Source: Alphaproteobacteria bacterium
Lineage (GTDB): Bacteria > Pseudomonadota > Alphaproteobacteria > UBA7985
NCBI GenBank assembly: GCA_965229645.1
Contig: OZ245893.1
Location: 448,323 to 512,322, forward strand
Reading direction: 5' to 3'
DNA: 64,000 bases
The notes beneath the pieces are model-generated. The model saw nothing but the letters and a program-made list of their open reading frames with translations. It made no database searches and was not told the origin of the DNA. Positions 9,838-61,311 of this stretch are shown in pieces; the first letter of the stretch is position 1; each line of letters opens with the position of its first letter. A program made the position numbers and the translations under genes.

Positions 9838-10189
9838 GGCGCGCAAGCCAGCTGCGTTGAATCGCGAGATTGCGGAGTTTTTTCGCGATTTTTTTTGACT
9901 GATTCCGATCGAAACGATCAAAATCAATCACATGATGTGCTGGGTTGTCGGGTAGGGGATCGTCGCGTGTTGCCAGGCCCTGAGAAATGCATTCATCCTT
10001 GCTGACGCCCAAGACGCCTACGGTGCGCATTCCTCTACGAATCGCGGCACGCAAACATCCTTGGGCATCTATCCTGTCTTCCGTATCAACCGAAAGCTGT
10101 CCGTGATCTTTGGGCATGGGACAGAAGTTCTCGCTGCTGACACCTTGATTTTGCGGGTTATATTTTTTCGGATCAATCTGACGAAACAA
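9812..10189 (-). CDS. Hypothetical protein (low-GC islet). The start is uncertain and it overlaps the 3' end of the udh-like gene.
   Basis: A 125-aa ORF in lower-GC DNA with no recognisable motif. Confidence 0.3.
   Translation of the reverse strand: MFRQIDPKKYNPQNQGVSSENFCPMPKDHGQLSVDTEDRIDAQGCLRAAIRRGMRTVGVLGVSKDECISQGLATRDDPLPDNPAHHVIDFDRFDRNQSKKIAKKLRNLAIQRSWLARPKPLPFPD
9860..9897 (+). terminator. Possible rho-independent terminator after the udh-like gene
   Basis: AATCGCGA…TCGCGATT inverted repeat followed by a T run (TTTTTTTTGA). The loop is long at 14 nt, so this is a weak call. Confidence 0.3.
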
Positions 10190-10194
10190 AAGGG

Positions 10195-18826: not shown

Positions 18827-19201
18827 TCAGGTGGCGGTCGTATTATTCCGCAACCAGGTTACAAGATGGTCGTGCTGAAACGTGCCCTCTTGAAGATGTT
18901 TGATGATAAAATCATAGACGGTGTTCGCGTCGGCGGTCATGTCAAATCCATTGATCATCAGGAACGTGAACGTCACCGCCACGGCCACACGCTTGTTGCC
19001 ATCGACAAAGGGGTGGTTCATCGCCAGGCTTTCCCAAAGCGCTGCGGCCTCTTCGATTAGATCGCCGTAGTGGCCCGTTTGTGGCCGGAATAGGGCGGCG
19101 TCAAGCAAGCCTGCGTCCCGCACACCATCGGCGCCGCCATATCGTTCGATCTGGTCGGCATGAATGGCCAAAACTTCAATGACGGTAAGATAATCCGTCA
19201 C
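18827..19201 (-). CDS. doc: Fic/Doc family toxin (death-on-curing)
   Basis: HPFVDGNKR Fic motif, 124 aa, with a 4-bp overlap to the upstream small gene. Confidence 0.85.
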   Translation of the reverse strand: MTDYLTVIEVLAIHADQIERYGGADGVRDAGLLDAALFRPQTGHYGDLIEEAAALWESLAMNHPFVDGNKRVAVAVTFTFLMINGFDMTADANTVYDFIIKHLQEGTFQHDHLVTWLRNNTTAT

Positions 19202-19428: not shown

Positions 19429-19508
19429 AGGTCATGCTCCTTTTAGTTCATCAATATCATGAAACGTCATGATAAATCAAGAAACGCCCTTTTCATTCCA
19501 CTGATACC

Positions 19509-19542
19509 AACGGCGAAAAAAGTTGACACTTTTTTCGCCGTT
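19509..19542. terminator. Near-perfect 13-14 bp stem hairpin, a bidirectional terminator-like structure
   Basis: AACGGCGAAAAAAG-ttgacac-(C)TTTTTTCGCCGTT followed by TTTGTG. The loop contains a TTGACA-like hexamer. Confidence 0.45.
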
Positions 19543-19546
19543 TTGT

Positions 19547-19700
19547 GTCTAACGGCAGAAACGCTTCGCGTTTCGCCTCCGACGGGGCCTTCGCTTATAC
19601 CCCGAGGCGCTTTCTTAGCTCATCTCGGGGCCGCTACGGGGGCCGCAGTCGCGGCCCTTATACCAGCGATCTTTAGAGTCATTCTCATTCGCCGCTGGTA
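19547..19700 (-). repeat. Structured GC-rich interspersed element of about 150 bp, copy 2 (inverted relative to copy 1)
   Basis: The reverse complement aligns to 6461-6612 at about 88% identity, and the base changes preserve the hairpins. Confidence 0.6.
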
Positions 19701-26461: not shown

Positions 26462-27571
26462 GTGTTTCGGCCACAGCTTTACGACTACCACAGCCTAAGG
26501 GCGCGGGCCAAGGCGCGCCTGCCCTGGATGGTGTTCGACTATATTGACGGCGCGGCGGGACAGGGCGGCGGCGTCGCGGCCAATCGCGCCGCCTTTGCCG
26601 CTATCCCGCTGCGCCCAAGGGTCCTGGTGGACGTGCGGCACCGCGACCTCAGCTGCCAGGTACTGGGCCAACCTTGCAGCGTTCCCTTTGGCATCAGCCC
26701 CATGGGTCTGTGCAACTTGGCCCATCCGCAGGCCGACCGCGCCTTCGCTGCCTTTGCCGTGCGCACGGGCGCGCCCGTCGGGCTTTCCACGTTCGGCTCG
26801 ACCGACCTCGAAACCATGGCCCAGTGGTCCGAGGGCAAGGCCTGGTTTCAACTCTACTTCAGCGGCGACGGCAGCGCGTCCCTGGCGCTGGCCGCGCGCG
26901 CGCAGGCGGCGGGGTATCAGACGCTGGTCCTGACCTTGGACGTGCCCGAGGTCGGCTACCGCCCGCGTGAGTTGCGCCACGGTTTCAAAATGCCGTTTCG
27001 GATCGGTCTCTCGCAAGCCTTCGACTTCGCGTGCCATCCGCGCTGGTCCGTGCGTGCGCTCTTAAGCGGCCCGCCGCGTTTGGCCAACTTCGACACGCTA
27101 GGCTACGATCTGGACCGCACCGAAAGCCGCGCAGGGGCCGACTGGACCTTCGTGCAAAAACTGCGCGAGCTCTGGACCGGCAAGCTGGTAGCCAAGGGTA
27201 TAACGCACGCAGGCGATGCCAAAGCCCTGGTGCAGGCTGGGGTCGATGCCATCCAAGTTTCCAGCCACGGCAGTCGACAAGTTGAAGGCGCAGTGCCGCC
27301 AATTTCAGCGTTGCAAGAGGTTCGCCAAGCACTGGGGCCGACTTTCCCCCTGTTCTACGATAGCGGCCTGCAATCAGGGGAGGACGTGGTCCGCGCCTAC
27401 TTGGCGGGCGCGGACTTCGTCTTCCTAGGCCGCTACGCCCAATTCGCCGCCGCCGCAGGCGGGGCTAGGGCGGTTCGTAACGCAACGGACTTCTTATGCG
27501 AACAGATCAGCAATACCCTGGCGCAACTCGGCAAAACATCAGTCTGCGAGTTGAGCGGGGTCAAGGCATGA
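26462..27571 (+). CDS. FMN-dependent alpha-hydroxy-acid dehydrogenase (L-lactate dehydrogenase LldD-like, candidate sulfolactate dehydrogenase)
   Basis: 369 aa, LldD/glycolate-oxidase family (…SSHGSRQVEG…). Confidence 0.8.
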   Translation: MFRPQLYDYHSLRARAKARLPWMVFDYIDGAAGQGGGVAANRAAFAAIPLRPRVLVDVRHRDLSCQVLGQPCSVPFGISPMGLCNLAHPQADRAFAAFAVRTGAPVGLSTFGSTDLETMAQWSEGKAWFQLYFSGDGSASLALAARAQAAGYQTLVLTLDVPEVGYRPRELRHGFKMPFRIGLSQAFDFACHPRWSVRALLSGPPRLANFDTLGYDLDRTESRAGADWTFVQKLRELWTGKLVAKGITHAGDAKALVQAGVDAIQVSSHGSRQVEGAVPPISALQEVRQALGPTFPLFYDSGLQSGEDVVRAYLAGADFVFLGRYAQFAAAAGGARAVRNATDFLCEQISNTLAQLGKTSVCELSGVKA

Positions 27572-27871
27572 GCGCCAGCGGCCATTCTTGTCAAACTCAG
27601 ATGGGTGGCGTTGCACCCATTTGGCGATCCGTGAGAACAAGCGTGCCTGATCGAGAGGTTTTTTGCGACCAAGCAAGACCTACGGGAAACCGAGCGACAT
27701 CTTATCATTCGATTTGGCGGCATGATGGTGGCGGGGACTGTTGTTGCGGTGCCTTGGTTGAACTTCTCTAGTCTAAGAGCGTACCTTGTTTCAGGGCTTA
27801 TATCACGGAAGGATGACCGAACCCACCTACCGACGAGCGTCCAAGCGCCAAACCCGAGCCTAGACGTCCGC

Positions 27872-27974
27872 ACCCGACGTCATCCAGCGCGGAGCGGAGC
27901 GAAGTCGCAGGATCCAGCACCGATCGTTTCGGGAAGTCCAGACGAAACGACCTTTGTGCGGTGCCAAACGACGG
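27872..27974. repeat. Interspersed repeat of about 100 bp, copy A
   Basis: It shares a CGTCATCCAGCGCGGAGCGGAGCGAAGTCGCAGGATCCAGCAC core and flanking similarity with 48965-49064. Confidence 0.4.
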
Positions 27975-28212
27975 CGGCATGATAGTGACGGGAATTATTC
28001 GTGTGGGGGCCTTATTTAGGCTTCTGTATCCCAAGGCCTCATCTTGTTTTAGGGCTATGACTAGCAACTCAACTTTACACAAAGTCCTTCAGAATAAGGA
28101 CCCGCAAGGACTTTGACGCACGAATCCCCGCGTCATACCAGCGGCAAGAATGAGCGACTCTTAATTTTAGGTATTCCCAAGGTGGTCCAATTCTGATTCG
28201 ATGCAGGGATCA

Positions 28213-28343
28213 TTGAATGAGACCTCAGCATAAATCAAAGAACCAAAAACTGACCGCAATATGTAGTATCCATTCGCCTCAATTAGCCCAATATATTTTA
28301 GCTGTGAGATTTGAAATCGAATTATGCTGAGGTCTCTGAATAG
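28213..28343. repeat. MITE-like 131-bp element with terminal inverted repeats
   Basis: TGAATGAGACCTCAGCATAA … TTATGCTGAGGTCTCTGAATA gives a perfect 15-bp inverted repeat, about 20 bp if two mismatches are allowed, bracketing 90 bp of AT-rich DNA directly upstream of IS630 orfA. Confidence 0.5.
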
Positions 28344-28352
28344 GAGTATGAT

Positions 28353-28865
28353 ATGAGTGCAGCGGTTCCCATTACTCGTCTTGACAAGAGTGCCGATGAT
28401 TTGCGGGCGCTGGCACGCAAGGCGAAGAACGGTCGAGTTGGCGGGCGATTGCTTTCCATAGCACTTGTTTTGGAAGGTGTGTCTCGTAAGTACGCAGCAG
28501 AAAGTAACGGCATGGACCGACAGTCGCTACGTGATTGGATCCATCGCTATAATGACGAAGGCGTTGGGGGTTTGGAAGATCGCAAAGGCGCAGGAGCCAA
28601 GCCCCGCATCAAAGGATCTGAGATGGACCAACTTGCAGCTTGGGTAAAGGCTGGTCCTGACGTTGAGCGCGATGGCGTTGTACGTTGGCGACGCAAAGAC
28701 TTAGCAGATCGGGTCAAACAAGAAATGAAGATCGAGGTGAGTGAGCGCACGGTGGGGAACTACTTGGACAAGCTGGGTTTTCGGCGTATGACAGTGCGGC
28801 CCGAACACCCCAAAACCGACAAAGAGGCCCAGGAGGCGCTAAAAAAAACTTCTCAAAGATCATAA
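28353..28865 (+). CDS. IS630-family transposase orfA (HTH/winged-helix part)
   Basis: 170 aa, and LSIALVLEGVSRKYAAESNGMDRQSLRDWIHRYNDEG is a helix-turn-helix. Confidence 0.8.
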   Translation: MSAAVPITRLDKSADDLRALARKAKNGRVGGRLLSIALVLEGVSRKYAAESNGMDRQSLRDWIHRYNDEGVGGLEDRKGAGAKPRIKGSEMDQLAAWVKAGPDVERDGVVRWRRKDLADRVKQEMKIEVSERTVGNYLDKLGFRRMTVRPEHPKTDKEAQEALKKTSQRS

Positions 28866-28873
28866 GGGATATT

Positions 28874-29416
28874 TTGCCTGACTACGCCCGCGAAAAAACC
28901 CTTGAGGTTTGGTTTCAGGATGAGGCGCGCGTAGGTCAGAAGGGCACAGTGACGCGTATTTGGGCGCCTCAGGGCACTCGCCCGCGTGCGCCGCGTGATA
29001 CACGTTATCAATGGAGCTATATCTTCGGGGCTGCCTGTCCCGAACGGGGTGTCGCCGCGGGGCTGGTCTTGCCTTATGTGAACACCGAGGCGATGAACTT
29101 GCACTTAGCGGAAATCTCCAAAACGGTTGCTACTGGTGCGCATGCGATCCTTGTGCTTGATTGCGCAGGTTGGCATCTGGCTAACAAACTAGAGATACCC
29201 CAGAATATCACGCTCCTAAAATTGCCGCCCTACTCGCCAGAGCTCAACCCTATGGAAAACGTCTGGCAATATCTGCGAGCAAACAAACTCGCACTATCGG
29301 TATTCGACACATACGAGGAAATTCTTCAAAAGTGCGCTGAGGCATGGAACTTCTTTGCCAATGACCCAAGGCGCATAATGTCGGTGACTAAACGCGATTG
29401 GGCAACGGTCATTTAA
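28874..29416 (+). CDS. IS630-family transposase orfB (DDE domain)
   Basis: WFQDEARVGQKGT…LVLDCAGWH…YSPELNPMENVW is an IS630/Tc1-like DDE region. Confidence 0.8.
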   Translation: MPDYAREKTLEVWFQDEARVGQKGTVTRIWAPQGTRPRAPRDTRYQWSYIFGAACPERGVAAGLVLPYVNTEAMNLHLAEISKTVATGAHAILVLDCAGWHLANKLEIPQNITLLKLPPYSPELNPMENVWQYLRANKLALSVFDTYEEILQKCAEAWNFFANDPRRIMSVTKRDWATVI

Positions 29417-29698
29417 TTTTTCCGTTGGTATGAGTGGATCACTGGGATCAAGGGTCACCTCGAAGGGTAGTTTTCGCGTTCGCACTATTTGGCGATAGAG
29501 CATGGAGATGACTTGCGACGGCTTAAGGCCCAACTCGGCTATCACCGCATCGCCTTGTTCCTTGAGATCGGCATCGATGCGCGAACTAACGCGCGCTTCT
29601 TGGGGCACGGCAGTAGTCTTTATGGGTTAGAGGCAATATCAATCGTTTGTACGCCAAACGTCACCCAAATCAAGACATCTTTTCAGGGCAATCGCACT

Positions 29699-30799
29699 TC
29701 AAAATCCTTGAATGAGTGTCTTTAAGAACTCGTTGCTCCATCCCGCGCGTTTGAACTTGACGCGATTTGAGGACTTGTCGTTGTTAGCCTTTATGATGTT
29801 CAAAGCAATGCGCCGTAAGGCAGCAAAGTTTGCAGGTGCGTTGCCCTTTCTCGCACGATGGAAGTCCTCGTTCATCACGACATCTAGGGACCAATGTAAA
29901 CTATTTTCAATCTGCCAATGACCACGGATTAGATTGGCAGCCTCCTGAGCGGTGCTCTGCTTTGACATAAGATAAGTCCGCTCTTCTTGGCTAACTTTCC
30001 CATCAACTTCACGCTTATACAACACATGGACGAAAGCAGAAAGGTGGGGCCAATCATGGGTTTGTGTCACATAATCTGGGACCTCATAAACTCTATAGCG
30101 GCGCTCCTCAATACGGCCATGGTCAGCATCCGTGGAACTGTACTCATTCGCCCAAATCGTTTGTGGGTCTGCAATAAAGGTCTGAATATCGTTCATCAAC
30201 CCCTTCTGGTTGGCCTTGAGTTGTATGCAATACTCTGCACCTTGAGCGGCGATCAGTTCACAGGTCTCGCGTTGGCAGTGCAGGGCGTCGGCGGTAAGAG
30301 TGATACCACGAATATCAAGCATCTGGATCAACTCACGCAGCGCTAAAATCTCACTGCCTGCCTTAGCGCTTTGAGTAATACCAAGACTTAACCGCGCCCC
30401 ATGGGCAAACGCTGTGACCAGGTTAAGGTTTGACTTCTTGGCAGCTTTATCAAAGCTCCCACGCAACTCCTTACCATCAATAGCAATGGCCTTTTGCTTT
30501 TCATCAGTGTTTGCAAAATCAGCTTGAAACTTTTCAAAAAACGCCTGAAAACTGTCTGGCTTCATCAACTGAAACAGGCGTGAAAATGCGTCGTGACTGG
30601 GTAAACCCAGAGGAAGTTCCAGAAACTCGCGCAAAAAATCCTCCTTGCTGCGAGCAAAATGTTCCATGTCCACTGCCGTTTCACCCCCACATAGGGCGCA
30701 CAAAAGGCTTATCGTCATCAAGTCGCAGAACTTGTGACGTGGGGCATTGCTCGTGCGAGGATCATCTAACTCGTTGAAATAATTGACTAGTAAGGGCAT
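29699..30799 (-). CDS. ISAs1-family transposase (H-repeat-associated type)
   Basis: The N-terminal FNELDDPR motif and 366-aa length are typical of ISAs1. Confidence 0.8.
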   Translation of the reverse strand: MPLLVNYFNELDDPRTSNAPRHKFCDLMTISLLCALCGGETAVDMEHFARSKEDFLREFLELPLGLPSHDAFSRLFQLMKPDSFQAFFEKFQADFANTDEKQKAIAIDGKELRGSFDKAAKKSNLNLVTAFAHGARLSLGITQSAKAGSEILALRELIQMLDIRGITLTADALHCQRETCELIAAQGAEYCIQLKANQKGLMNDIQTFIADPQTIWANEYSSTDADHGRIEERRYRVYEVPDYVTQTHDWPHLSAFVHVLYKREVDGKVSQEERTYLMSKQSTAQEAANLIRGHWQIENSLHWSLDVVMNEDFHRARKGNAPANFAALRRIALNIIKANNDKSSNRVKFKRAGWSNEFLKTLIQGF

Positions 30800-30885
30800 G
30801 TGTCGGCTCCATCTCGTGATGGAGACCGCCGAGTCCCTTTAGAACAAATTGTCAACTCTCAAGTGCGATTCCCCTGGACATCTTT

Positions 30886-31020
30886 TTCACCCGTGGAGAA
30901 GTGAATTTCAGCGCCGACCTCATTGATTGCTCTGCGATCTGTGCCCGCAAAAGCGTCGCGCACGAGCAGGTCGCCGAGGGCGCAGTAAGTGTGTTCGTTG
31001 GCCAGTTTGGCGCGGGTGTC
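30886..31020 (-). pseudogene. Diverged fragment of a glycerate kinase 3' end (last 45 or so codons), copy C
   Basis: The minus-strand translation MTLKADTRAKLANEHTYCALGDLLVRDAFAGT aligns to the C-terminus of the intact kinase at 40134 (MTLNAETRAQLANNDAYPALQTLGGLIVRGATGT). Confidence 0.55.
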
Positions 31021-31107
31021 GGCCTTGAGGGTCATCTTCTTGAAGGCGGAACGTAAAGCGCCAACGCGGCTTTGCTCAGAATCTATTTGGCGAGGCGCTG
31101 ATCTCAG

Positions 31108-31389
31108 CTAACTGACAGCCTGATGGATGATTGATTTTATCAGCGTTTGGTAGGGCACGCCGTCGCGAAACGCCTGCGCCTTCACACGTGCAAGGTCGCT
31201 ATGGGCGATGCGGATCGAAATTTTCTCGCTTCCTTCATTGAGCCTGTTGCGCGCCGCTTCCTGCATTTGGGCTTTGAGTTCAGGGGTGAGAAGGCTCTCC
31301 CTGGGCACATGGGCGTCGGATTCAAGGGCCTCTACCAACTCTCGCTCCTCCTCATCGAGGGTGTTCTCTACATAGGGGTCTTTTTTCAT
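31108..31389 (-). CDS. brnA: BrnA antitoxin (RHH-type)
   Basis: 93 aa. It overlaps brnT by 4 bp (ATGA) and has a typical BrnA C-terminal ribbon-helix-helix. Confidence 0.75.
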   Translation of the reverse strand: MKKDPYVENTLDEEERELVEALESDAHVPRESLLTPELKAQMQEAARNRLNEGSEKISIRIAHSDLARVKAQAFRDGVPYQTLIKSIIHQAVS

Positions 31390-31679
31390 GAGGCGTCCTT
31401 CTTCAAGTAAAAGGCCGTTTCGTTACGGCTGGGAAATACGGTTTTGAGAAACCAGGTACCGTCATCCTCCATCACGAAAGGAACGACGTAGGCGTAGTTT
31501 TCGATGTTGAGGATAGCGAGGCGCTGATGGGCACTTGTTGGGTGAGGTCGCACGTCAAGGATTCGACCATCAGCAATCGCGACGACGCAGTCGGCAAAAG
31601 TCACGCCATTACGAGAGGTTTCCGCTTGAAGTTTCTTCTCCTTTTCACTGCTCCAGCGGAACTTTTGCATGTCTTCCAT
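31386..31679 (-). CDS. brnT: BrnT toxin (DUF497 ribonuclease)
   Basis: 97 aa, with DUF497-like motifs (WSSEKEKKLQAE and TFADCV). Confidence 0.8.
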   Translation of the reverse strand: MEDMQKFRWSSEKEKKLQAETSRNGVTFADCVVAIADGRILDVRPHPTSAHQRLAILNIENYAYVVPFVMEDDGTWFLKTVFPSRNETAFYLKKDAS

Positions 31680-31745
31680 TGTATGGACAAACGAGTCGTT
31701 GTCAAAGGAATTTCAAGAAATGGGTTCAGATTGAGGCGGGTCACT

Positions 31746-32115
31746 CAACCTCACCCCCGCACGAAAATCTGTAGGTCCGCCACGTTGGTTCCCGTTGCGC
31801 CGCGCACGATGAGGCCGCCGAGGGCTTTTCGGGCAGGGTAGGCGTTGTTGTTGGTCAGTTGGGCACGGGTGTCAGCAGTGAGGTCATGGTATGATCGACT
31901 AGGTCGCCCGCAGCGTCGTTGGGGCCGTCGATGCCAGCGGTGCTGCCGCTCAAGAAGGCTCAGGGGTCTGGCAGATCCTCTAGGCAGGTCAGGACATGGG
32001 GGGCGAGATCCTGACTAAGGCCGTCCATGCCCGTGCCGCGCAAGATAAGGGTGGTTTCGCCGCCTCAGACCAGCGTGGGCGGGTCGGTGCTGCGGATATG
32101 ATCGGCGATTTGGCC
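31746..32115 (-). pseudogene. Decayed copy of the glycerate kinase 3' end (about 120 codons), copy B
   Basis: It is about 80% identical to 40134-40500 and contains frameshifts and an in-frame stop. Confidence 0.75.
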
Positions 32116-32213
32116 GTTGGTAGTACTTGCGCGCAACTCCCTTTGTGAGCAAGCGGGCAACGGCTCGTCGTCCTCTGGACTCTGCGGGGCCATTCCCTTG
32201 GCGTGAATAGATT

Positions 32214-34001
32214 GTGGATTTTGTTCCAGTTACTCCCTATTCGGAATCTATGCACCTGAAGGATCATAGATGGTATGGCTTTTGGACCATGGGCTCAATC
32301 CCGCACGCGCATGATTTGGGTGCGCTAAGGTTCGCCGATCTTTGCAAGCCTGCCGCCGATTGGCCCCATGGCGACGAGGCTGCAGAGGATCCAAGACGCC
32401 AAGAACGACCGAGTTTTAGACAGGTCGCCCCGTGGCTGCCTGGTCAAATGGACAAAACCCTTCTTGCCGATCCCCAGCTCGCGGCCACGCCCCTATTTGG
32501 TACCTTAAAACCTCAATCGGTTGCGGGAGATATGTTGCCAGAAATGAGGGCGATTTTGGGGGGGAACAAGCCAGATACCTGCAAAGTCTATGAACTCAGC
32601 AGCAAGACCATTGCTTTGCTCAACAGGGGCAGAATTTACCGTCCAACTGTGGGGGAAGACGATCGAGTTACCTATGCCTTGGGCTTCAAGCTTTCTAGGG
32701 CCGCTCACTACAGGCTGTTTGGCGACGCCTCTTCGCCCAACCCTTGGCAAGTTTTGAGTAAGAGGAACTGGCAAATCGTCCAAGAACGCCAACGGCTTGA
32801 CGAGGTGCGGGTTCAAAATCACGAAAATTTGCCAAGGCCTTCCACGGTTATTCCTTTGCAAATCCATCGGCTCGTCGTCTGGCACTTTGCTGAGGGCCGC
32901 CTCATTGCCGTCCCCGAGATCGGCATCGCGGACGATGGAGACGAGGGCCACGCATACCCGTTCGACCTTGCGTGGGAATTGGCAGATGGACTGTCGCGCT
33001 TAGGCGAACTTGTGTGGCTTGGGTATGGCGCAGAACAAAGCGGCGTCGCCTATGCTGAGGGCCAAGATCTTGTTCCAATGTGGATTGAGACTGGCGAGCT
33101 AAGTCTCGGCAAAATTCTGTCCCGCCTTTTGCTAGGTGAGTATGCAGTCTATCAACGTGATCGCCGCACATTTGGCTATAGCTATGCCCGTCTTAAAGAT
33201 ACGAATACAAAGGGGCAGCAAAGCGAACTAAGGCTTGCCGCAGTCCGTGCAGCCCTAAGCCTCACATCCGACTACGATGTGGCCGACCCTGTGCCGTTTG
33301 CTGGGATTGCGCAACCGTTTCAAAACATGGTTCATGCCGCTGGGTTGGAAGGGGCCTGTACGCTGGTTGCCGATCACTCGGACGGACGCAACTTGAGCTT
33401 TCTCGACGACTTTCGCACCAATAGGATCGAACAGGAGTATCGTCTTTTGTTGGTTCTGGCAATTTATCAACGTTATGAAGGGCTTCGTTTGTTGCGGAAA
33501 ATCAGTAAGGGGGTTGAGGGGGAAAAGCGTGATATCCACCAGCGCTTGGCCGAGTTGGACGCGCTCTATAACCAGGTTGCAAACTTGCAAGCCCGCTATC
33601 GCGATCATCAACTGAGCGCGGTGGGTACGCAGTTACTGTTCAACCGTCTTGTCCGAACCCAGTTGGGCCTGGACGAGATCGAGGTCCAACTCAACCAAGA
33701 CATGAGGCTGGTCTTTGAGCGGGAACAAGCCGCCGCTGCCGCCGAAAATGCCCGCGAAGACGCGAAAATGATGCGTGCGCAAGGCAAAATGCAAGCCTGG
33801 GCCAAATGGTTCGGCGCTTTGAGCGCAGGCTTTCTTGCCTTTGTTACAACGCTGCAGATTGGGACTTTGACCGATCAACTCCCCTGGTTGCCCAGGGATG
33901 AGTGGCTTATCCTCCTTGCGGTCGGGGTAGCTCTGTTCGCGGCCTTTGCAGCTTATGTAGCGGGACATGGACTCACGAAACGTGCCCCTGACGTTTCTTA
34001 G
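32214..34001 (+). CDS. Hypothetical 595-aa protein with a central coiled-coil region and two C-terminal TM helices. It is the only unassigned cargo gene of the Cas13a island.
   Basis: The ORF has a GTG start at 32214 (an alternative ATG is at 32250). It is lower in GC than the genome. The C-terminus WAKWFGALSAGFLAFVTTLQIG…WLILLAVGVALFAAFAAYVAG forms two TM helices. It ends 70 bp before the terminal repeat of array 1. Confidence 0.6.
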   Translation: MDFVPVTPYSESMHLKDHRWYGFWTMGSIPHAHDLGALRFADLCKPAADWPHGDEAAEDPRRQERPSFRQVAPWLPGQMDKTLLADPQLAATPLFGTLKPQSVAGDMLPEMRAILGGNKPDTCKVYELSSKTIALLNRGRIYRPTVGEDDRVTYALGFKLSRAAHYRLFGDASSPNPWQVLSKRNWQIVQERQRLDEVRVQNHENLPRPSTVIPLQIHRLVVWHFAEGRLIAVPEIGIADDGDEGHAYPFDLAWELADGLSRLGELVWLGYGAEQSGVAYAEGQDLVPMWIETGELSLGKILSRLLLGEYAVYQRDRRTFGYSYARLKDTNTKGQQSELRLAAVRAALSLTSDYDVADPVPFAGIAQPFQNMVHAAGLEGACTLVADHSDGRNLSFLDDFRTNRIEQEYRLLLVLAIYQRYEGLRLLRKISKGVEGEKRDIHQRLAELDALYNQVANLQARYRDHQLSAVGTQLLFNRLVRTQLGLDEIEVQLNQDMRLVFEREQAAAAAENAREDAKMMRAQGKMQAWAKWFGALSAGFLAFVTTLQIGTLTDQLPWLPRDEWLILLAVGVALFAAFAAYVAGHGLTKRAPDVS

Positions 34002-34071
34002 GCCTGCAATAAACCAGTTCATCAAAACGCGGTGAGGACTTCCAAAACCGCACCCCCACGCCAGGCGGCGC

Positions 34072-35427
34072 GAAGGGGACGGTTTTCAAATCGCCAGGGT
34101 TGGGACCGTCGCCTGGGGTGAATCACTGCTCGAGGAGGGTGCAGGCGGCTTTCAAATAGCCGTGGTTGGGACCGGCTGTTGCTTCCATGACACCGTGGCA
34201 CTGGGTGCAGGCGGCTTTCAAATAGCCGTGGTTGGGACCGTCTGCGGGCACGGGCTCCCAGATCATCGAGGTGCAGGCGGCTTTCAAATAGCCGTGGTTG
34301 GGACCCGCAGACGGTTCGCTGTACGACGTCTACCGGGTGCAGGCGGCTTTCAAATAGCCGTGGTTGGGACCACAAGCACTTTCGATCCGAAATACAAACC
34401 AGGTGCAGGCGGCTTTCAAATAGCCGTGGTTGGGACCTATCCCAACGGGGATTATACGGGCGACTTTGGTGCAGGCGGCTTTCAAATAGCCGTGGTTGGG
34501 ACCGGTGGACCGTGAGGACAAGGGTAAGCAGACGGTGCAGGCGGCTTTCAAATAGCCGTGGTTGGGACCGAAATCCCAGGCGGTGATACAAATTCCGAAG
34601 GTGCAGGCGGCTTTCAAATAGCCGTGGTTGGGACCGCGGATCCTGTACGTTCACGATGTTGCCCCGGTGCAGGCGGCTTTCAAATAGCCGTGGTTGGGAC
34701 CGATCAACGGGCAAAACGTTTTTACGGTTGGGGTGCAGGCGGCTTTCAAATAGCCGTGGTTGGGACTGGCATCTTTCCTTGCTCATCTAGCTTCCTGGGT
34801 GCAGGCGGCTTTCAAATAGCCGTGGTTGGGACCTCAACTTCAAGCAATACTCTGGATTTGCAGGGTGCAGGCGGCTTTCAAATAGCCGTGGTTGGGACCC
34901 GGCTTCTGGTGTAATAGGAATTTTGCTCGGGTGCAGGCGGCTTTCAAATAGCCGTGGTTGGGACCCGATGCTGTAGGCGCCCTTCTGGTCGAGTAGGTGC
35001 AGGCGGCTTTCAAATAGCCGTGGTTGGGACCCCAAGGCTGCGTCGGCGTTCATGCCGAACAGGTGCAGGCGGCTTTCAAATAGCCGTGGTTGGGACCTTG
35101 AACGCGATCCAGATCAAACGCCGATGGGGTGCAGGCGGCTTTCAAATAGCCGTGGTTGGGACCGGGTCGCTCGGTCATGGCCAAGCAGCGCCAGGTGCAG
35201 GCGGCTTTCAAATAGCCGTGGTTGGGACCGCCCGAAGGCTCGCCGAGACGGGCAGGGTTGGTGCAGGCGGCTTTCAAATAGCCGTGGTTGGGACCCATTG
35301 TACCACATGCGGTACACGCCTGGGAGGTGCAGGCGGCTTTCAAATAGCCGTGGTTGGGACCGACTGTGACGGGCGACGTTGCAACCGACTTGGTGCAGGC
35401 GGCTTTCAAATAGCCGTGGTTGGGACC
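34072..35427 (-). CRISPR. CRISPR array 1 with 21 repeats of 36 nt (one degenerate at 34072-34107) and 20 spacers of uniform 30 nt
   Basis: The plus-strand repeat is GGTGCAGGCGGCTTTCAAATAGCCGTGGTTGGGACC, with an exact 66-bp period from 34138 to 35427. Repeat 10 ends in T. The degenerate repeat is at the cas13a-distal end. Confidence 0.95.
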
Positions 35428-35515
35428 AGGATTGTTGCAAGTCATTAAAAATGCTTCGGAATCCTGGGTGAGTCGGATTAGGAATTACCTTGATTGGCAC
35501 TTTGTCAAGACTGGA
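35428..35515 (-). promoter_or_regulatory. Putative leader/promoter of array 1 (AT-richer, between the cas13a stop and the first repeat)
   Basis: Inferred from the array polarity and AT content. Confidence 0.4.
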
Positions 35516-38500
35516 TCAGTCATTTTTTCCTTGTCCATAAGCAAGTTTCTCTAGGGTTTTCAAGAACGTAGTGGAAACGCGGTCCACCTCGAACTTTGCC
35601 TCCGTAAAGGAAGCAAGATGCCAGACGGGAACTGCGCTCAGCCCACCTTCTTGAGGTTTATGGAGGCGGTGCTCATCGCAAGTTTCCCATCTGACTTCAA
35701 TACCTTCATCGAGCATGAGATCCTTGATTGCCTTTGATACGGCGTTGCGCAATTTGCGATCATAGGTCATGAGCCTGCGGACGTCGTTGATAAGGCTGGT
35801 GAGATTGAGCCCCGGCTTCAAGATTGTAAAGTGCGCGAAGGCGTTGCGAATTTTGGCCTGTTCCTCGCCAAAATACTTGTTGTAAAGAGATTGATTGTCT
35901 TGCGTGAGGTTTTCCAACACAAGTGGGCCGCGTTTGAAGCTGGGTCGGTCGCTCAATTTCTTGGCGAATTCATACAGATCCTGGTTTCCATGGCCCTGTT
36001 GACGTTGATAGAGCGCTAAGGCGACGAAAAGCGCATCCCGCTCCCACGTTGCGCTAAAATCGATGAGGCGAGAGACCAGTCGCATGAGCAAAATATGAAG
36101 GCGTGTCATGTCGCTGAGCCGCACCCGTTCCGCTAAGAACTTAAATTTGTTTAGCGCCTCCGTGATCTTTTGATACTCGGCGGTTTCTTCTGCATCCAGG
36201 TGATTTTTCTTCGACTTAACGATTTTATTGTGAAGATCGTGCTTCTTCTTCTCAAAACCCGCAACACGAGGTAAGTCACGCAAGTAGCTGGACACCTCAG
36301 CTTCGGAAATTTTGCTGGTCGCGTGCAGGTTTTGTAGGAGGGGCAAGGTGCCAAAGCGCAAAATTTGTCGTAAGCCAGTTTTGAGACCTTCAACGCGTCG
36401 TTCCTCTGCGGCCTTCGCACCAACGGACAAATCTTGCTGCGGGGCAAAGACCCGCTGGAAATGGCCCCGATCTTCAAAAAGGTCCGCCACGTCGGCCAAA
36501 CCGCCCGACGTTTCAAGGATGTTGACCATGTGCGCGCCAGCCATTTTTCCGTAGAGCAGACAAAGATCGCGCAGTTTGCGAGCGTAGTCGCTGTGCTCAT
36601 CGGGACGCGTCTCTTTGGTTTCCAGAACGCGGGCCTTGACGAACTGAGTCATGAGTCGGCTGGTATCCTGCACTGGCACCAAGTAGAGAAACACGTAAAA
36701 CAAGGCCTCCCAATCTTCGAGATCTCGATCTAGACCAGCGTCTTCAAAGGCGGGGGGATGCGCGACATATGTTCGTTTCTCCAGTCGGCCGCGCGCGAGC
36801 CATTGGAAGGGTTTGCCTTGCGGCGACTCTAGGAATTGGGCGAAGAGCAGGGCGAAGAAATCACATTTCAAGTCCTCGATCGCGTGAGAGTTCTTTCGTG
36901 CTTTCTTTCTGTCGGCCACGTAGGTTCGATTCTGCCGCGTTTCGGCGGCGACAACTTGGGTCAGTTGATCGAACCATTCTTGGAGATTCTTGCCAGGATG
37001 CAGTTGCGGGACTTGGGTCAAGCGCGACTCAACTAGGTCCGCGAAGGGCCCCGTGTTGTTCATGGCCTTGGCACGCGCGGTCGCCTCTCTAATTACTTGG
37101 TCGGCCGCATCGGCGAACTTTGACGTGCCGTTGTTTTCTATCAGCCAAACCCGAAAGGCAGAATTGTAGATCAGTTGCAAAGCACCGAAATGACAGGTCG
37201 CCGCTTCGTCATTTTTTGTTACCGTACTTATCTTATCGGGGAACTGCGATCGGGTGTCGTCTTTTGGGAAATGGCCTTTAAGGTTGTGATTGCGATGCAG
37301 GATCCGCCCAAATCGAGGGATCAGCAAATCGCGATCGGGCTCGAGCAGTGAGGCCTTGAACAGGTCCTCAACCTCTCTATGGCCAGGAACAAACCACGGC
37401 ACCTTTAGGGCCATGATCACATCCTTAGATCGCTGCTTCAGGCCCCGCATGTCGGTTTCTAGCCGTGCGCGCGCGAAGGCGAGCAAGTCAGAAAAGCCCT
37501 CGACGTCGTTCCAATTCCCCGCAACTTCAAGTTTGTGAAGGCTGGCCTTGAGCTTCGCGGCGTCGCCAAAATGAAAGACTTGAGTGCGCAATCGCGCCGC
37601 CACCCTCAGTAGTGCGAACAACCGTTGCTTTGCCAGTTGCTCATCTTCGGTCGCAAAGACCGAGTCATCCCCGTGGGAGTCACCGCCAGCCTCGTTCAAA
37701 GGATCGCCAAAGACAAGTTTGGCCATGCGGTTATAGTGCGGCAAACCCACGAAACACTTCGTGGTCGCCTTTATTCCGACCTCATTCGAAAGAATGTCGT
37801 CGTCCACATAAGCCGTTTCAGGGCCGAAAATTTCACCTTTTGGATCGGCCCAGTATTTTAAGGTGCGGCTAGCTTGCGAAATGGCGGTGCGCCAGAATCG
37901 TTCGAAGGCTTCGGAGTGCTTAAGCGCCGTGAGCGCAGACGACGTTTTTAGGGCCTGCATGCAGGCGGGCATCTGCTCTGCCGAGTGCGCGCGTCGGGCC
38001 GCGTGGTAGATATTACGGCCTTCGCGGATCAAGGCGGTCATGGTGGCGTTGCCTTGCTTGCGGTTTAGGGCACGCACCAGCGACGCCATGTCGGCGGGCA
38101 AGCGATAGGAAAGCGGTGTGCGCGTGTTTTGGAGGTGCCGAGTGGACTTGCGTACCTTGTTGGCGTAGAATTTTTTGACCTGGTTGTGCAGGTCAAGCAA
38201 GTCGCGATCGGACGAAGTGAACTTTTGGCCTGGCTTTTTTAAGGGCGCAAAGTGGTCCGATAAGATCTTCCCAAAAAGTGTCGTGCCAACAGGCTCGTTC
38301 TGACTTTCGCGCCTGCGCACCTCTGAAAAAATATGGGCGGCTACGTTGGCGTACGTCCCTTGCTGATAGGCCTTAAGGCGCGGCTCGGACAGCTCCAAGC
38401 TCGGGCGCTCTGTGTTTTGGGCCGCGGTCCAAAGGTTGGAGGTCCTAATGCTATTGGCCCGGTGCCAAATCAATCCGTGACCAGATTTTTTTTGACCCGA

Positions 38501-39016
38501 GGCCGAGACTTTCGCGGTGAACAGGTGGGCGTCGATGTTTTGGGCAATCTGCTTGTAGTTGGGGTTTCCTTGCGCGTCTTGCGCCCAGAGGGCTGTCTTG
38601 AGGCGTCCATAAATTCGATCAGGCTGAGCGCCCGCAGGGGCCCTGTCCCTTAAGGCCCTCAAGTCCTCCTCGGCCGTTGGAAAGTCCGCGTAGGGATGCA
38701 GCTTCGCCCGCCAAAATTCGAACTTGGCGCCGACGTTCTTACGGCTGATAAGTTCCCACACGGCCTGGCCCAACTGCTCGCGCCGTTCGTAGCGCTCAAC
38801 AGACATGAGGCGCAGGTTCTTTTCTTTGGTGAGGACCTTGTCCAGAATTCCGATATATTGCCGCATCAGAATTTTGGCCTCTTTCGATATGAGGGTATGG
38901 AGGTCAGCGTCTCGGTTCTGCTCAGACACAGTGGGCCGCGTTACCTCGACGCGACGCTCCAATTTTGAACCGTCCCAATGCGTTTTACTGTTGCCGATTG
39001 ATGAGATGATTTTCAT
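35516..39016 (-). CDS. cas13a: Cas13a (C2c2), the type VI-A CRISPR RNA-guided RNase
   Basis: 1166 aa, flanked on both sides by CRISPR arrays. It has two R-x4-H HEPN motifs, RTQVFH at aa 476-481 and RNAFAH at aa 1057-1062, a placement that matches Cas13a. It is lower in GC than the flanking DNA. Confidence 0.85.
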   Translation of the reverse strand: MKIISSIGNSKTHWDGSKLERRVEVTRPTVSEQNRDADLHTLISKEAKILMRQYIGILDKVLTKEKNLRLMSVERYERREQLGQAVWELISRKNVGAKFEFWRAKLHPYADFPTAEEDLRALRDRAPAGAQPDRIYGRLKTALWAQDAQGNPNYKQIAQNIDAHLFTAKVSASGQKKSGHGLIWHRANSIRTSNLWTAAQNTERPSLELSEPRLKAYQQGTYANVAAHIFSEVRRRESQNEPVGTTLFGKILSDHFAPLKKPGQKFTSSDRDLLDLHNQVKKFYANKVRKSTRHLQNTRTPLSYRLPADMASLVRALNRKQGNATMTALIREGRNIYHAARRAHSAEQMPACMQALKTSSALTALKHSEAFERFWRTAISQASRTLKYWADPKGEIFGPETAYVDDDILSNEVGIKATTKCFVGLPHYNRMAKLVFGDPLNEAGGDSHGDDSVFATEDEQLAKQRLFALLRVAARLRTQVFHFGDAAKLKASLHKLEVAGNWNDVEGFSDLLAFARARLETDMRGLKQRSKDVIMALKVPWFVPGHREVEDLFKASLLEPDRDLLIPRFGRILHRNHNLKGHFPKDDTRSQFPDKISTVTKNDEAATCHFGALQLIYNSAFRVWLIENNGTSKFADAADQVIREATARAKAMNNTGPFADLVESRLTQVPQLHPGKNLQEWFDQLTQVVAAETRQNRTYVADRKKARKNSHAIEDLKCDFFALLFAQFLESPQGKPFQWLARGRLEKRTYVAHPPAFEDAGLDRDLEDWEALFYVFLYLVPVQDTSRLMTQFVKARVLETKETRPDEHSDYARKLRDLCLLYGKMAGAHMVNILETSGGLADVADLFEDRGHFQRVFAPQQDLSVGAKAAEERRVEGLKTGLRQILRFGTLPLLQNLHATSKISEAEVSSYLRDLPRVAGFEKKKHDLHNKIVKSKKNHLDAEETAEYQKITEALNKFKFLAERVRLSDMTRLHILLMRLVSRLIDFSATWERDALFVALALYQRQQGHGNQDLYEFAKKLSDRPSFKRGPLVLENLTQDNQSLYNKYFGEEQAKIRNAFAHFTILKPGLNLTSLINDVRRLMTYDRKLRNAVSKAIKDLMLDEGIEVRWETCDEHRLHKPQEGGLSAVPVWHLASFTEAKFEVDRVSTTFLKTLEKLAYGQGKND

Positions 39017-39166
39017 GCCGAACCTCAGCCAAAGTACCTAAGTGCCAATTCACGGACGTTGCCTCGTGAACCTCAGGTCTTTGGGGTTAGAGAACCGCTG
39101 TTACAAAAACAAGGGCTTCGATAGAGTCTCAACGCACGAGTACGAGGGCCGTCGCAACGGGCTGCT

Positions 39167-39894
39167 GGGTGTTACTGTAGCCGATGTTTGAACCGAGGTC
39201 GTCCTCGAGTCATCCCAAAGTTGGGGGTGTTGGCGGCTGTCACTGTAGCCGATGTTTTAACCCACGGACAGCTGAAAGAAGGAGGTACCTATCAAGGGTT
39301 TTGGCGGCTGTCACTGTAGCCGATGTTTTAACCCACGGACAGCTGAAAGAAGGAGGTACCTATCAAGGGTTTTGGCGGCTGTCACTGTAGCCGATGTTTT
39401 AACCCAGACCCCGAAAACGTCAATGTAGTTGAAGTCGGTGTTGGCGGCTGTCACTGTAGCCGATGTTTTAACCTCCTACAAAATTCCGGGGGGGAGTCTA
39501 ACTCTCACGGTGTTGGCGGCTGTCACTGTAGCCGATGTTTTAACCCAGTTCGATGGACTGGTGGGCGGATCCGCCAGGGTGTTGGCGGCTGTCACTGTAG
39601 CCGATGTTTTAACCGAAGGTTTTGTAGCCAGCTTTACCCCGTATAGTGGGTGTTGGCGGCTGTCACTGTAGCCGATGTTTTAACCGACGAGGAATACATC
39701 CTCGTCATGACACCCTGGTGTTGGCGGCTGTCACTGTAGCCGATGTTTTAACCAAAATAAGAAGGCTGACGTAAAAGTCAGACTTCGGTGTTGGCGGCTG
39801 TCACTGTAGCCGATGTTTTAACCTGGGCTACGGCTTGTTTGTGCCGCACAACGACGCGGTGTTGGCGGCTGTCACTGTAGCCGATGTTTTAACC
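39167..39894 (-). CRISPR. CRISPR array 2 with 11 repeats of 37 nt (one truncated terminal repeat and two G-to-T variants) and 10 spacers of 31-35 nt
   Basis: The plus-strand repeat is GGTGTTGGCGGCTGTCACTGTAGCCGATGTTTTAACC. Repeats 2 and 3 read GGTTTTGG…. Spacers 1 and 2 are identical. The truncated repeat (39167-39194) lies next to cas13a. Confidence 0.95.
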
Positions 39895-40133
39895 TCACGT
39901 CTTCTAGCCCCGCTCTGGGCTTGAAGAAAGTACTTTTTTTCTGAACCAAACCCGAAACGGTGACCCAAACGCCATCTCATACGAAGAGAAAGTGGCTGTA
40001 GGACGTGGCAAAATCCTTGTCCAGCTTAGCCTTTGCAGAAAATCTGAACCAAAATCGTCGATTTCCCACGCCAACAGGGTCAATATGTCCAGTATTCTGG
40101 GGTCAGGGATACGAGAACGCAGAGCCGCCATTT
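39895..40133 (-). promoter_or_regulatory. Putative leader of array 2
   Basis: It lies at the non-degenerate end of the array and contains an A/T run (GTACTTTTTTTCTG). Confidence 0.4.
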
Positions 40134-41366
40134 TCACCCCCGCACAAAAATCTGCAGGTCCGCCACGTTGGTTCCCGTTGCGCCGCGTACGATGAGGCCG
40201 CCGAGGGTTTGGAGGGCGGGGTAGGCGTCGTTGTTGGCCAGTTGGGCGCGGGTTTCGGCGTTCAGGGTCATGGTATGATCGACCAAGCCGCCAGCGGCGT
40301 CGGTGGGGCCGTCGATGCCGTCGGTGCCGCCGCTTAGGAAGGCCCAGGGGCCTGGCAGGTTTTCTAGGTGGGTTATGACATGGAGCGCGAGCTCCTGATT
40401 GCGGCCGCCTTTGCCTGTGCCCTGCACGGTGACGGTGGTTTCGCCGCCCCAGAGCAGCGTGGGGGCAGGGGTGTTGCGGATGTCTTGGGCGATTTGGGCG
40501 GCGGCGGCTTGGACGTCGCCCGTAAGGGCCGCGTTCATGATCTTGGCCTGGCCTGCGCTGGCCATGGCGCGCAGGCTTTGGGCGTTGGAGCCGATCAAGG
40601 CGTTGTCGGCGGGCGGGAGTTCGGTTCGGTTCTTGGGCAGGCGCGGCGTCGCGGCGGTAAGCGCGTCTTGGACGGCGCGCGGCAGGCGCGGCCAGATCTG
40701 CGCCTTGTGTAAAGCGGTCACGGCGTCTTGAGCCGTGCCTAAGGGCGGCGTGGTGGGGCCGCTGGCGACGGCGCGCAGATCATCGCCGATGACGTCGGAG
40801 AGGATCAGCGCGCGCACCTGGGCGGGGGCGGCGAGGGCGCTGAGGCCGCCGCCCTTCAGCTGCGAGAGGTTTTGCCGAACCAAGTTGATGGCCTCAATCG
40901 GCATCCCAGCGGCCAGCATAAGATCGTTGGTGGCTTGCTTGTCGTCCAGGGTCAGGCCAGGGAGCGGGCAGGGCAGGAGCGCGGAGCCCCCACCCGAGAG
41001 CAGCAGCACGATCTCTTCGTCCGCGCCCGCGCGCTGGGCAAGGTCCTTGACCTGCTGCGCCGCCGCTAGGCCCGCCGCGTCGGGGCGGGGATGGCCCGCG
41101 CCCAGGACCTGCGCGCCCGCGACGGGCTGGACGTTTCCGTAGGAGGTCACGGCCAGGGCCGATCTTGGGGTTACAAACTCAAGGGCCGCGCGCATCATGG
41201 CGCAGGCGGCCTTGCCGACGGCGATCAGGTGCGGGTGGGCGGCGGGTGGGTTGGCCTTAAGCGCGCGGCGAACGGCAGCGGCGGGGTCGGCGGCGTCGAT
41301 GCCGACCTGGAACAGGTCTAAGACGCAGGATCTTAAATCCTTCATTTCGCTAGGGAGGTCAGGCAC
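40134..41366 (-). CDS. Glycerate kinase (MOFRL/GckA-TtuD family)
   Basis: 410 aa, with MOFRL-family motifs (GKAACAMM…LLSGGGSALL). The start may instead be the MKDL methionine at 41345. Confidence 0.85.
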   Translation of the reverse strand: MPDLPSEMKDLRSCVLDLFQVGIDAADPAAAVRRALKANPPAAHPHLIAVGKAACAMMRAALEFVTPRSALAVTSYGNVQPVAGAQVLGAGHPRPDAAGLAAAQQVKDLAQRAGADEEIVLLLSGGGSALLPCPLPGLTLDDKQATNDLMLAAGMPIEAINLVRQNLSQLKGGGLSALAAPAQVRALILSDVIGDDLRAVASGPTTPPLGTAQDAVTALHKAQIWPRLPRAVQDALTAATPRLPKNRTELPPADNALIGSNAQSLRAMASAGQAKIMNAALTGDVQAAAAQIAQDIRNTPAPTLLWGGETTVTVQGTGKGGRNQELALHVITHLENLPGPWAFLSGGTDGIDGPTDAAGGLVDHTMTLNAETRAQLANNDAYPALQTLGGLIVRGATGTNVADLQIFVRG

Positions 41367-48680: not shown

Positions 48681-48964
48681 GGTAAGGCAAGTCTCTTGAT
48701 CGCGCCTCTACCGAAATCGGTTTCGGAGTCAATCAGAATTTTGAACCCTAAGCCAGTCTCGGGCGATTCAAGACCAGGTCATCGGCGTGGGCGACGCGAA
48801 GTCGTAGGATCTGGGCACCTGCTGTTTCCGCTCGAACGGAAAGCGGGCACAAGGAGGAAGCAGGCAACCCAAAGTCGGCACCCATCGTTTTCACGGCTGG
48901 AGTTCAGTGATGGATGCTGCGACTGCGCGCTGCATGACATCGCGAGAGGATCTCGGGACACTCG

Positions 48965-61220: not shown

Positions 61221-61311
61221 TGGTGAGATGGCCGAGTGGCTTAAGGCGCACGCCTGGAACGCGTGTATAGGGGAAACTCTATCGTGGGTTCGAATCCCAC
61301 TCTCACCGCCA
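61221..61311 (+). tRNA. tRNA-Ser (GGA)
   Basis: GGTGAGA acceptor stem pairing with TCTCACC-G-CCA, a long variable arm, a TΨC arm GGTTCGAATCC and the anticodon loop CTGGAAC. Confidence 0.85.

Follow-up and report, generated by a model that had tools for sequence, protein, structure and literature searches.

In a 64,000-nt stretch of contig OZ245893.1 from an uncultured alphaproteobacterium (the window), the gene for a glycerate 2-kinase-type enzyme is followed by an island at 27572–40133, in which two decayed copies of the 3′ end of this gene are found in the same orientation as the gene itself. The intact gene lies at 40134–41366 on the minus strand, and its last part is referred to as copy A; the displaced copies are referred to as fragments B and C. 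Our leading explanation, which we believe about as readily as we doubt it, is that old insertions by a single crossover (Campbell-type) at the very end of an operon's last gene left B and C as their distal junction scars. The modules between these copies carry a Cas13a locus and a brnTA-like toxin–antitoxin cassette.

The intact kinase gene was used as query against the whole window. Fragment B was matched at 31751–32116 to gene nt 867–1233 on the same strand (82.0% identity over 367 nt, E = 8e-102), and fragment C at 30976–31035 to gene nt 1096–1155, again on the same strand (81.7% over 60 nt, E = 1e-10). Among chance matches to the kinase gene in the window, the best was 28 nt long with E = 4e-4, and chance similarity is ruled out for B and C by their E values. 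At the protein level, B aligns in two frames with 52% and 84% identity (E = 2e-39), its reading frame being broken by two in-frame stops and one frameshift near 31882, and C retains 58% identity over 31 aa (E = 8e-4). Fragment B occupies 31746–32116 on the minus strand, corresponding to gene nt 867 to 5 nt past the stop codon (stop+5). Fragment C is far more decayed than B; its first 83 aligned nt are 81% identical to the gene and are followed by a poorly conserved tail with an 18-nt insertion. This tail is weakly homologous up to GGGTGAAAA, which matches the stop region of the intact gene (the score was reached by 12 of 1000 shuffles), and thus C spans about 30887–31035 on the minus strand, from gene nt 1096 to the stop. 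The three co-oriented kinase 3′ ends reported in an earlier reading made from the letters alone (the sequence-only reading) are therefore homologous, with coordinates good to ~15 nt.

The closest relative of both fragments is the kinase of this clade itself (69–86% identity, versus 52–70% for the next best), which rules out B or C as xenologues of a distant taxon. Both stand out as GC-rich islets (GC contents of 0.64 and 0.605) amid DNA of 0.45–0.55 GC.

In a three-way alignment and in tests of the downstream flanks, similarity among A, B and C stops 4–5 nt past the stop codon, and no significant homology of the downstream flanks was found beyond that point. Upstream, the boundaries are staggered, with B starting at gene nt 867 and C at nt 1096, so that the copies have a common 3′ boundary and different 5′ boundaries. 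The sequence TGAGGTTG is common to B and the intact copies of the related species (locus L001) and of a same-species assembly (L027), and the best-conserved block across all three copies is a 28-nt segment at gene nt 1158–1185. Different DNA follows each copy: the Cas13a locus after A, the brnTA-like cassette after B and a terminator-like hairpin after C. Since three different sequences begin no more than 5 nt after the stop codon, either at least two insertions occurred at the same point or a ready-made gene end was brought in. Each element is bounded, in one orientation, by direct repeats with the 3′ end of the target gene, as in gene-end accretion.

Fragment B is a mosaic. Its stub (gene nt 867–1157, at 31827–32116 on the minus strand) carries 16–17% private changes, two stops and the frameshift; the 48 private changes in 291 nt are spread over codon positions as 9:13:16, and the stub is equidistant from the window species and the related species (5:5 informative sites). 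Its tail (gene nt 1158 to stop+5, 81 nt at 31746–31826 on the minus strand) has one private change in 76 nt and, over nt 1158–1233, sides 4:0 with the kinase alleles of the window species. The contrast between stub and tail is significant (Fisher p = 1e-4), and the maximum chi-square changepoint falls at nt 1157, a value reached by 31 of 2000 permutations. Divergence at four-fold sites between the window and the related species is 0.167, i.e. ~0.09 per lineage. The private branch of the stub, ~0.17, is roughly twice the share of one lineage since the split from the related species, and the tail is younger than the split. Because the divergence of the stub exceeds the four-fold divergence per lineage, an old stub would have been joined to, or refreshed by, a young tail; that is, an already old non-coding stub probably gained a young gene tail or had its tail refreshed. 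Such a mosaic would fit the prediction of a crossover near nt 1157.

The intact gene encodes 410 aa with DUF4147 and MOFRL domains (Pfam) and is the final gene of a sugar operon in the order LacI, solute-binding protein, two permeases, MGH1-like hydrolase, ATP-binding cassette (ABC) ATPase and kinase, an order kept in L027, L031 and L032. In a collection of 5.8 billion proteins, there were just two close kinase clusters, at 95% and 88% identity, the next being at 60%; exact look-ups of the kinase protein of the window and of the protein P0121 found no record of either. Copy A (gene nt 867 to stop+5, within and just past the intact gene, at 40129–40500 on the minus strand) is ~90% identical to the related species without a break across the stop codon into the CRISPR (clustered regularly interspaced short palindromic repeats) leader. 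A replacement gene end recognisable by its composition was not seen, the intact end being host-like with a G+C content at third codon positions (GC3) of 0.80. Taken by itself, this composition would speak against an imported replacement end, which it does not support; with a crossover so near the stop codon, however, the host-like GC3 of the gene end would be uninformative. The end of A and the tail of B are 95% identical, and a crossover within the last ~80 nt would predict no difference between them.

Among strains of the same species, the 3′ third of the kinase gene and the leader show 2–9 differences per 80 nt between the window and L027, versus mostly 0–2 per 80 nt in the ATPase gene upstream. 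We count this peak of strain divergence in favour of the proposed single-crossover insertions. As a separate observation, window positions 40001–40560 are the most divergent stretch among the strains, with two allele types ~6–7% apart and L029 as their recombinant, and the five bases past the stop codon switch as a block between alleles, AAAAT versus GGTTG.

In the mechanism we propose, an incoming circular DNA would carry a segment homologous to the kinase 3′ end, and a crossover within this segment would keep the kinase intact while displacing the former end, together with the non-functional stub of the incomer, downstream. The oldest junction would then comprise C, the terminator and the convergent end of a DUF1640-like gene, the brnTA cassette would be the next insertion, and the Cas13a module, bounded by A and B, would be the last insertion or the last re-insertion. 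The crossover would have been made by a site-specific recombinase that is now lost or remote, or by RecA acting on the conserved homologous tail; in the latter case, any repeat-flanked module could loop out and re-enter by homology alone. The crossover and the order of these events are what we infer from the present arrangement. Such a model accounts for the common limit at the stop codon, the staggering of the left boundaries, the different DNA after each of the three copies and the mosaic of B. Two further features are counted on its side: the terminator-like hairpin past C is the only one on the kinase strand and is followed by a convergent gene end, so that this DNA resembles the original downstream DNA, and the 3′ end of the convergent DUF1640-like gene is itself duplicated (27716–27798 versus 27973–28056, 70% identity, E = 7e-8), giving a mirror duplication around a 174-nt piece. 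As they stand, the modules are integrase-less fixed remnants, which we liken to cis-mobilizable elements (CIMEs), and present variation comes from insertion sequence (IS) elements. The successive site-specific insertions with replacement ends proposed in the sequence-only reading are partly supported, by the common boundary, the three different followers and the mosaic of B; nothing demonstrates a site-specific recombinase.

Related brnTA cassettes are found at other loci. In a metagenome contig (L061), a brnTA pair whose BrnT is 86% identical lies beside the N-terminal remnant of a serine recombinase in a 1102-nt insert, which is bounded by an 89-nt direct repeat (720–808 and 1911–1999, 97% identical). 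This repeat covers the first 47 nt of an aldo-keto reductase gene and the 42 nt upstream of it, and the reductase is kept intact. Its three mismatches are clustered within 11 nt, as would be expected from recombining diverged homologues and not from a fresh target duplication. We count L061, with the same architecture and the same cassette at another gene kept intact, in favour of the single-crossover model. Since the repeat derives from an unrelated gene, gene-end repeats around the cassette are not kinase-specific; this weakens the case for one dedicated kinase-specific integrase and points to a general insertion mode that would spare the target gene. In L064/L065, brnTA lies beside a complete resolvase (serine recombinase) gene, with no repeat. 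In the genome of the related species (L033, 8800–11900), it lies inside long tandem repeats with periods of ~150 nt and 48 nt. Some of these tandem units read as 50-aa ORFs (open reading frames), and a single 48-nt unit of this type is present in the window at 48895–48942, in the interval that separates the LacI gene from the operon next to it. The homologous cassettes in L033, L061 and L064 carry no kinase fragments, which rules out these fragments as a component of the brnTA cassette.

Several results weigh against the single-crossover model. The contrast between head and tail that is significant in B is not so in C (p = 0.13), and the young tail of B could equally be explained by gene conversion from A. 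Elsewhere brnTA occurs without kinase pieces, and in the related species it lies 870 kb from the kinase locus, at 80.5% nucleotide identity, and has no kinase fragment near it. Every module is present in three further assemblies of the same species (L027/L028, L029 and L030), whose flank identities are 98–99%, and the four strains differ in IS elements and array content, not in module presence. The empty site with a single kinase 3′ end that the sequence-only reading had looked to in related genomes was absent from the relatives found, as was any module-less variant for the clade. In relatives at 59–60% kinase identity, the kinase ends a conserved operon and is followed by unrelated, partly mobile DNA; no duplicated kinase 3′ end was found in 23 more distant kinase loci, and no tandem kinase-end copy without cargo in any locus examined.

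A further objection comes from the related species itself. In L001, the kinase is 88% identical, the side of the LldD-like gene is syntenic and the Cas13a module begins at the same nucleotide junction; the stretch corresponding to window 27772–32117, with B, brnTA, C and the IS elements, is absent. The breakpoints are at 32117/32118, the left edge of B, and at 27771, in the stop region of the DUF1640-like gene. Because L001 has the module at an identical junction without B, brnTA and C, the single-crossover model requires either a precise deletion or an independent acquisition in L001. Between the breakpoints, L001 holds 56 unrelated nt, for which no significant counterpart was found in the window (112 of 300 shuffles). 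The locus has been rearranged in other ways as well. An IS3-family element (L001 11977–13309) with inverted repeats of 27 nt connects a CRISPR repeat that is cut short with the middle of the 595-aa gene, and L001 has lost cas13a, array 1 and part of the 595-aa gene through an IS-associated deletion; its operon upstream of the kinase is lost as well, cut to 315 nt of the ATPase gene. Being degenerate and rearranged, the L001 locus is a weak witness either way and provides no ancestral reference.

A Pfam scan found no recombinase gene among the ORFs of the island or the low-GC3 ORFs of the window, the high-GC3 ORFs outside 21047–49124 not being scanned; none is on record for L027–L030, which cover window 21047–49124; and ORF and sequence reading, not Pfam, found none in the island of L001. 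Within this scope the statement that the window holds no integrase is upheld. These negatives also count against the proposed insertions: gene-end accretion would normally include a recombinase gene in at least one element or one shown to act in trans, which was found neither among the scanned ORFs nor in L027–L030, and an empty site or att-to-att presence and absence, which was likewise not found, the boundaries in L001 not being att-to-att. When viral contigs were searched for the kinase tail with two exact patterns, with a profile of the C terminus and with the motif ATGTNVAD in back-translation, no kinase-like sequence was retrieved, and a plasmid search gave just a Paracoccus kinase homologue. 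Related Cas13a arrays were sought in Joint Genome Institute (JGI) metagenomes by repeat pattern, which gave 14 single chance matches and no array.

The arrangement in L001 is best fitted by another explanation, in which the block 27772–32117 was imported, or left over, in one piece from another allele of the locus, comprising the kinase 3′ part, brnTA, C, intergenic DNA and the DUF1640-like 3′ end, and was joined to an L001-like arrangement of kinase, Cas13a module and DUF1640-like gene by homology on one side and by an illegitimate join on the other. B would then be a truncated second kinase allele and not an attachment-site scar of the Cas13a module, which would leave C as the one insertion scar. 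Taking exactly this block out of the window gives the arrangement in L001, with the cuts at B's first base and in the stop region of the DUF1640-like gene, and the block is 99.7–100% identical in four strains whose kinases differ by 2–6%. The junction between stop+5 and the leader is common to L001 and the window species at ~90%, like the remainder of the genome, which suggests that the Cas13a module is older than the split and was not what gave rise to B. The illegitimate join, however, must land exactly at the end of the module, a gene conversion has to be added to account for the young tail of B, the two DUF1640-like 3′ ends only 174 nt apart are left unexplained, and the 56 junction nt of L001 have no detectable window counterpart. 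The even 16–17% private changes of the stub, roughly double the neutral divergence accumulated since L001 split off, are also hard to square with an arrival after the split, and we regard the import of a single block as unlikely.

If the site were instead a hotspot that is still active, which is the strong form of the sequence-only reading, a remote tyrosine or serine recombinase with its core in the last ~80 nt of the kinase gene would move integrase-less modules in trans. The use of one nucleotide-level junction by different cargos, the young tail of B, the strong conservation of the 28 nt at nt 1158–1185 in all copies and the serine recombinase beside brnTA relatives in L064/L065, with a remnant in L061, all agree with this, and mobilisation in trans of elements without an integrase is on record for the 3′ ends of protein genes (PMC7563491). 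Yet the four strains show IS differences only and no variation in module presence, no recombinase was found among the scanned ORFs of the 64-kb window, the viral contigs lack the kinase tail, the 23 other kinase loci are unduplicated, the cassette in L061 uses an unrelated target, and C is too decayed for a working site; an active hotspot is improbable in our view. Most improbable of all seems a sequence of local duplications, in which replication slippage or unequal exchange would have copied the kinase 3′ end, cargo would have entered between the copies later and decay would have followed. The derivation of B and C from the kinase lineage of the clade itself, the duplication of the convergent gene end and the high activity of IS elements at the locus speak for it; but two cargos would each have to hit precisely the stop+5 join in successive duplicates, the mosaic of an old stub and a young tail is unexplained, and no cargo-free tandem copy was seen in any locus.

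A bolder extension of the single-crossover model, which we consider improbable and place only slightly above an active hotspot, is that the Cas13a locus and the toxin–antitoxin cassette move between strains as repeat-flanked, recombinase-less units, with the decayed stub riding along and the last ~80 nt being swapped at each crossover, through a recombinase in trans (core at nt 1158–1185) or RecA alone. If this were true, the 89-nt repeat of L061 would be a second instance of a general mobility of defence cassettes that spares the target gene. The mosaic of B and the L061 repeat are the most useful leads and could serve to test cassette movement by homology alone.

The island has a GC content of 0.45–0.59, versus 0.62–0.70 in the flanks. 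From the kinase stop codon, the order is leader and array 2, cas13a, array 1, the 595-aa gene on the other strand, B, the brnTA-like cassette and C, and beyond C an ISAs1 element, 250 nt with the hairpin, an IS630 element, a displaced DUF1640-like end, 174 nt, a truncated DUF1640-like copy and the LldD-like gene. The module order given in the sequence-only reading thus holds, with the corrections that two CRISPR arrays (34071–35440 and 39152–39927), not one, flank cas13a, and that two DUF1640/CCDC90-like remnants lie between the IS elements and the LldD-like gene. No tRNA or other RNA genes that might serve as alternative att sites were found inside the island.

CRISPR array 2 with its leader abuts the kinase stop codon (39152–40128, minus strand; array 39152–39927); it has 11–12 units of a 37-nt repeat and is homologous in L001 and L027. 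Two neighbouring units, at 39225–39366, are a 99% duplicate including the spacer. Next to it, cas13a (35516–39016, minus strand) encodes 1166 aa. The local Pfam scan gave no match for cas13a in the window, its assignment resting on the precomputed families PF28192/PF28350 of the orthologues. Array 1 (34071–35440, unstranded) has ~21 units of a 36-nt repeat with a 66-nt period, and the repeats of the two arrays are related but different, GGTGCAGGCGGCTTTCAAATAGCCGTGGTTGGGACC and GGTGTTGGCGGCTGTCACTGTAGCCGATGTTTTAACC. With Cas13a families on the orthologues and two arrays, the locus has the Cas13a protein and CRISPR array that define type VI-A; the island holds neither cas1 nor cas2. At the far end of the Cas13a module, an orphan 595-aa gene (583 aa as called; 32214–34001) and its 96-nt upstream region occupy 32118–34001 on the plus strand, and homology with L001 ends exactly at 32118. 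The protein has no Pfam match and forms just two clusters, from the window species and L001, among the 5.8 billion proteins; always beside Cas13a arrays, this may be an accessory gene.

The brnTA-like cassette (31097–31717, minus strand; genes 31386–31679 and 31108–31389) has limits set by L061, L033 and L064 and is preceded by a near-consensus promoter-like TTGACA-16-TACAAT at 31705–31678. Its antitoxin matches CopG_antitoxin with 29.0 bits (cut-off 28), and its toxin gives a weak BrnT match, with 14.8 bits versus a cut-off of 34.5. Past C, the ISAs1-family element (29684–30876, minus strand) has terminal inverted repeats of 16 nt, with a target duplication of 10 nt, GACATCTTTT; L029 and L030 are without it at this site, and it is a recent strain-specific insertion, a further correction to the sequence-only reading. 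The terminator-like hairpin (29644–29660, minus strand), found in a consensus scan only, lies ~35 nt downstream of C once the ISAs1 element is removed and is a candidate for the original kinase terminator. The IS630-family element (28133–29433, plus strand) consists of a helix-turn-helix (HTH) ORF and a DDE_3 ORF between imperfect 26-nt terminal inverted repeats. The displaced second 3′ end of the DUF1640/CCDC90-like gene, with 27 nt downstream, lies at 27973–28056 on the plus strand (70% over 84 nt, E = 7e-8), and the 5′-truncated, frameshifted remnant at 27634–27798 on the plus strand is the orthologue of a 75-aa gene of L001 (14539–14766). The island ends at the LldD-like FMN-dependent dehydrogenase gene (26462–27571, plus strand; Pfam), a conserved flank that is syntenic in L001 and L028–L030.

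Differences between strains amount to 0–0.3% for the 595-aa gene, B, brnTA and C, and to 2–3% for cas13a (97–98% identical). Sharply different module alleles bounded by A and B are ruled out, an earlier figure of 91% being due to the array spacers. One sister strain carries an extra IS4-like element and has ISAs1 at another position (L028 4527–7150 and 13382–14797; L027 12626–13852). In the same strain (L028/L027), cas13a is reduced to 1081 aa, with an IS256-family transposase gene at its start, and two array blocks are separated by an ORF of 471 aa of unknown type.

Elsewhere in the window, a tRNA-Ser (GGA) gene at 61222–61311 is followed by DNA of 38–45% GC with few ORFs up to the window end (64000), probably a classical tRNA-associated island whose integrase, if any, would lie beyond the window. 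Two minus-strand ORFs (125 and 397 aa) at 9812–11388, with GC3 of 0.49–0.50 and no Pfam match, lie amid high-GC3 metabolic genes and form a second small foreign patch without flanking repeats; no gene-end repeats were found around this patch or after tRNA-Ser. An element of ~120–160 nt resembling repetitive extragenic palindromes (REP-like) is common to both species at intergenic sites, in the window at 6495–6616 and 19504–19700 and in L001 at 268–454, 6041–6305 and 14923–15074, including a site beside the DUF1640-like gene. A short Fic/DOC-family ORF (124 aa, 18827–19201) also lies beside a REP-like element in the window.

Arrangements of this kind are known from other systems. In tandem islands at tRNA and tmRNA genes, successive integrations leave co-oriented displaced copies of the gene end; unlike these, the target at the kinase locus is protein-coding and no integrase adjoins any copy. 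For ISCR1 regions, Campbell insertion of circles carrying part of the class 1 integron 3′ conserved segment has been proposed, and the kinase locus resembles this proposal in that the cargo is flanked by a partial copy of the conserved sequence next to it, one boundary being fixed and the extent variable, and in that RecA, and no integrase, may carry out the insertion, but it has neither a rolling-circle IS nor an integron.

The sequence-only reading treated a protein-coding target as something out of the ordinary; such targets are already well documented (PMC7563491, PMC13626634). In Escherichia coli K-12, the cryptic prophage e14 lies in icd, with a displaced C-terminal pseudogene, icdC (PMC13626634, with Hill et al. 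1989 cited there), and recombination between the two gene-end copies gives a functional chimeric gene (PMC13626634). As at the kinase locus, an intact metabolic gene extends into the element, whose far end holds a displaced pseudogene copy of the C-terminal part, whereas e14 encodes its own integrase, excises on SOS induction and forms one element with one displaced copy. In Streptococcus thermophilus and S. salivarius, integrative and conjugative elements (ICEs), integrative and mobilizable elements (IMEs), as well as integrase-less CIMEs and microCIMEs, accrete at the 3′ ends of fda, rpsI, rpmG and rplL (PMC7563491; PMC5812530, citing Pavlovic et al. 2004 and Bellanger et al. 2011). The kinase locus is like these in its tandem elements behind a protein-coding gene, with the 3′ end repeated at each junction, inner elements without a recombination gene and cargo of adaptive and defence type, and the 174 nt that separate the two DUF1640-like ends are reminiscent of a streptococcal microCIME without genes (130–220 bp). 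The streptococcal composites, in contrast, always include or clearly derive from an element with a tyrosine integrase and have short att repeats, whereas the repeats at the kinase locus are long (~370 and ~150 nt) and decayed, and no integrase was seen in five loci.

The structure at the kinase gene is thus real and old, and the principle is already established at fda, rpsI, rpmG and icd, so that the understanding of such islands is unchanged. If the scars are crossover junctions, a type VI-A (Cas13a) locus and a toxin–antitoxin pair would be the cargo of integrase-less, repeat-bounded modules, which bears on how defence systems travel, and the end of a glycerate kinase operon in an uncultured alphaproteobacterium would join the protein-gene 3′ ends that collect foreign DNA.

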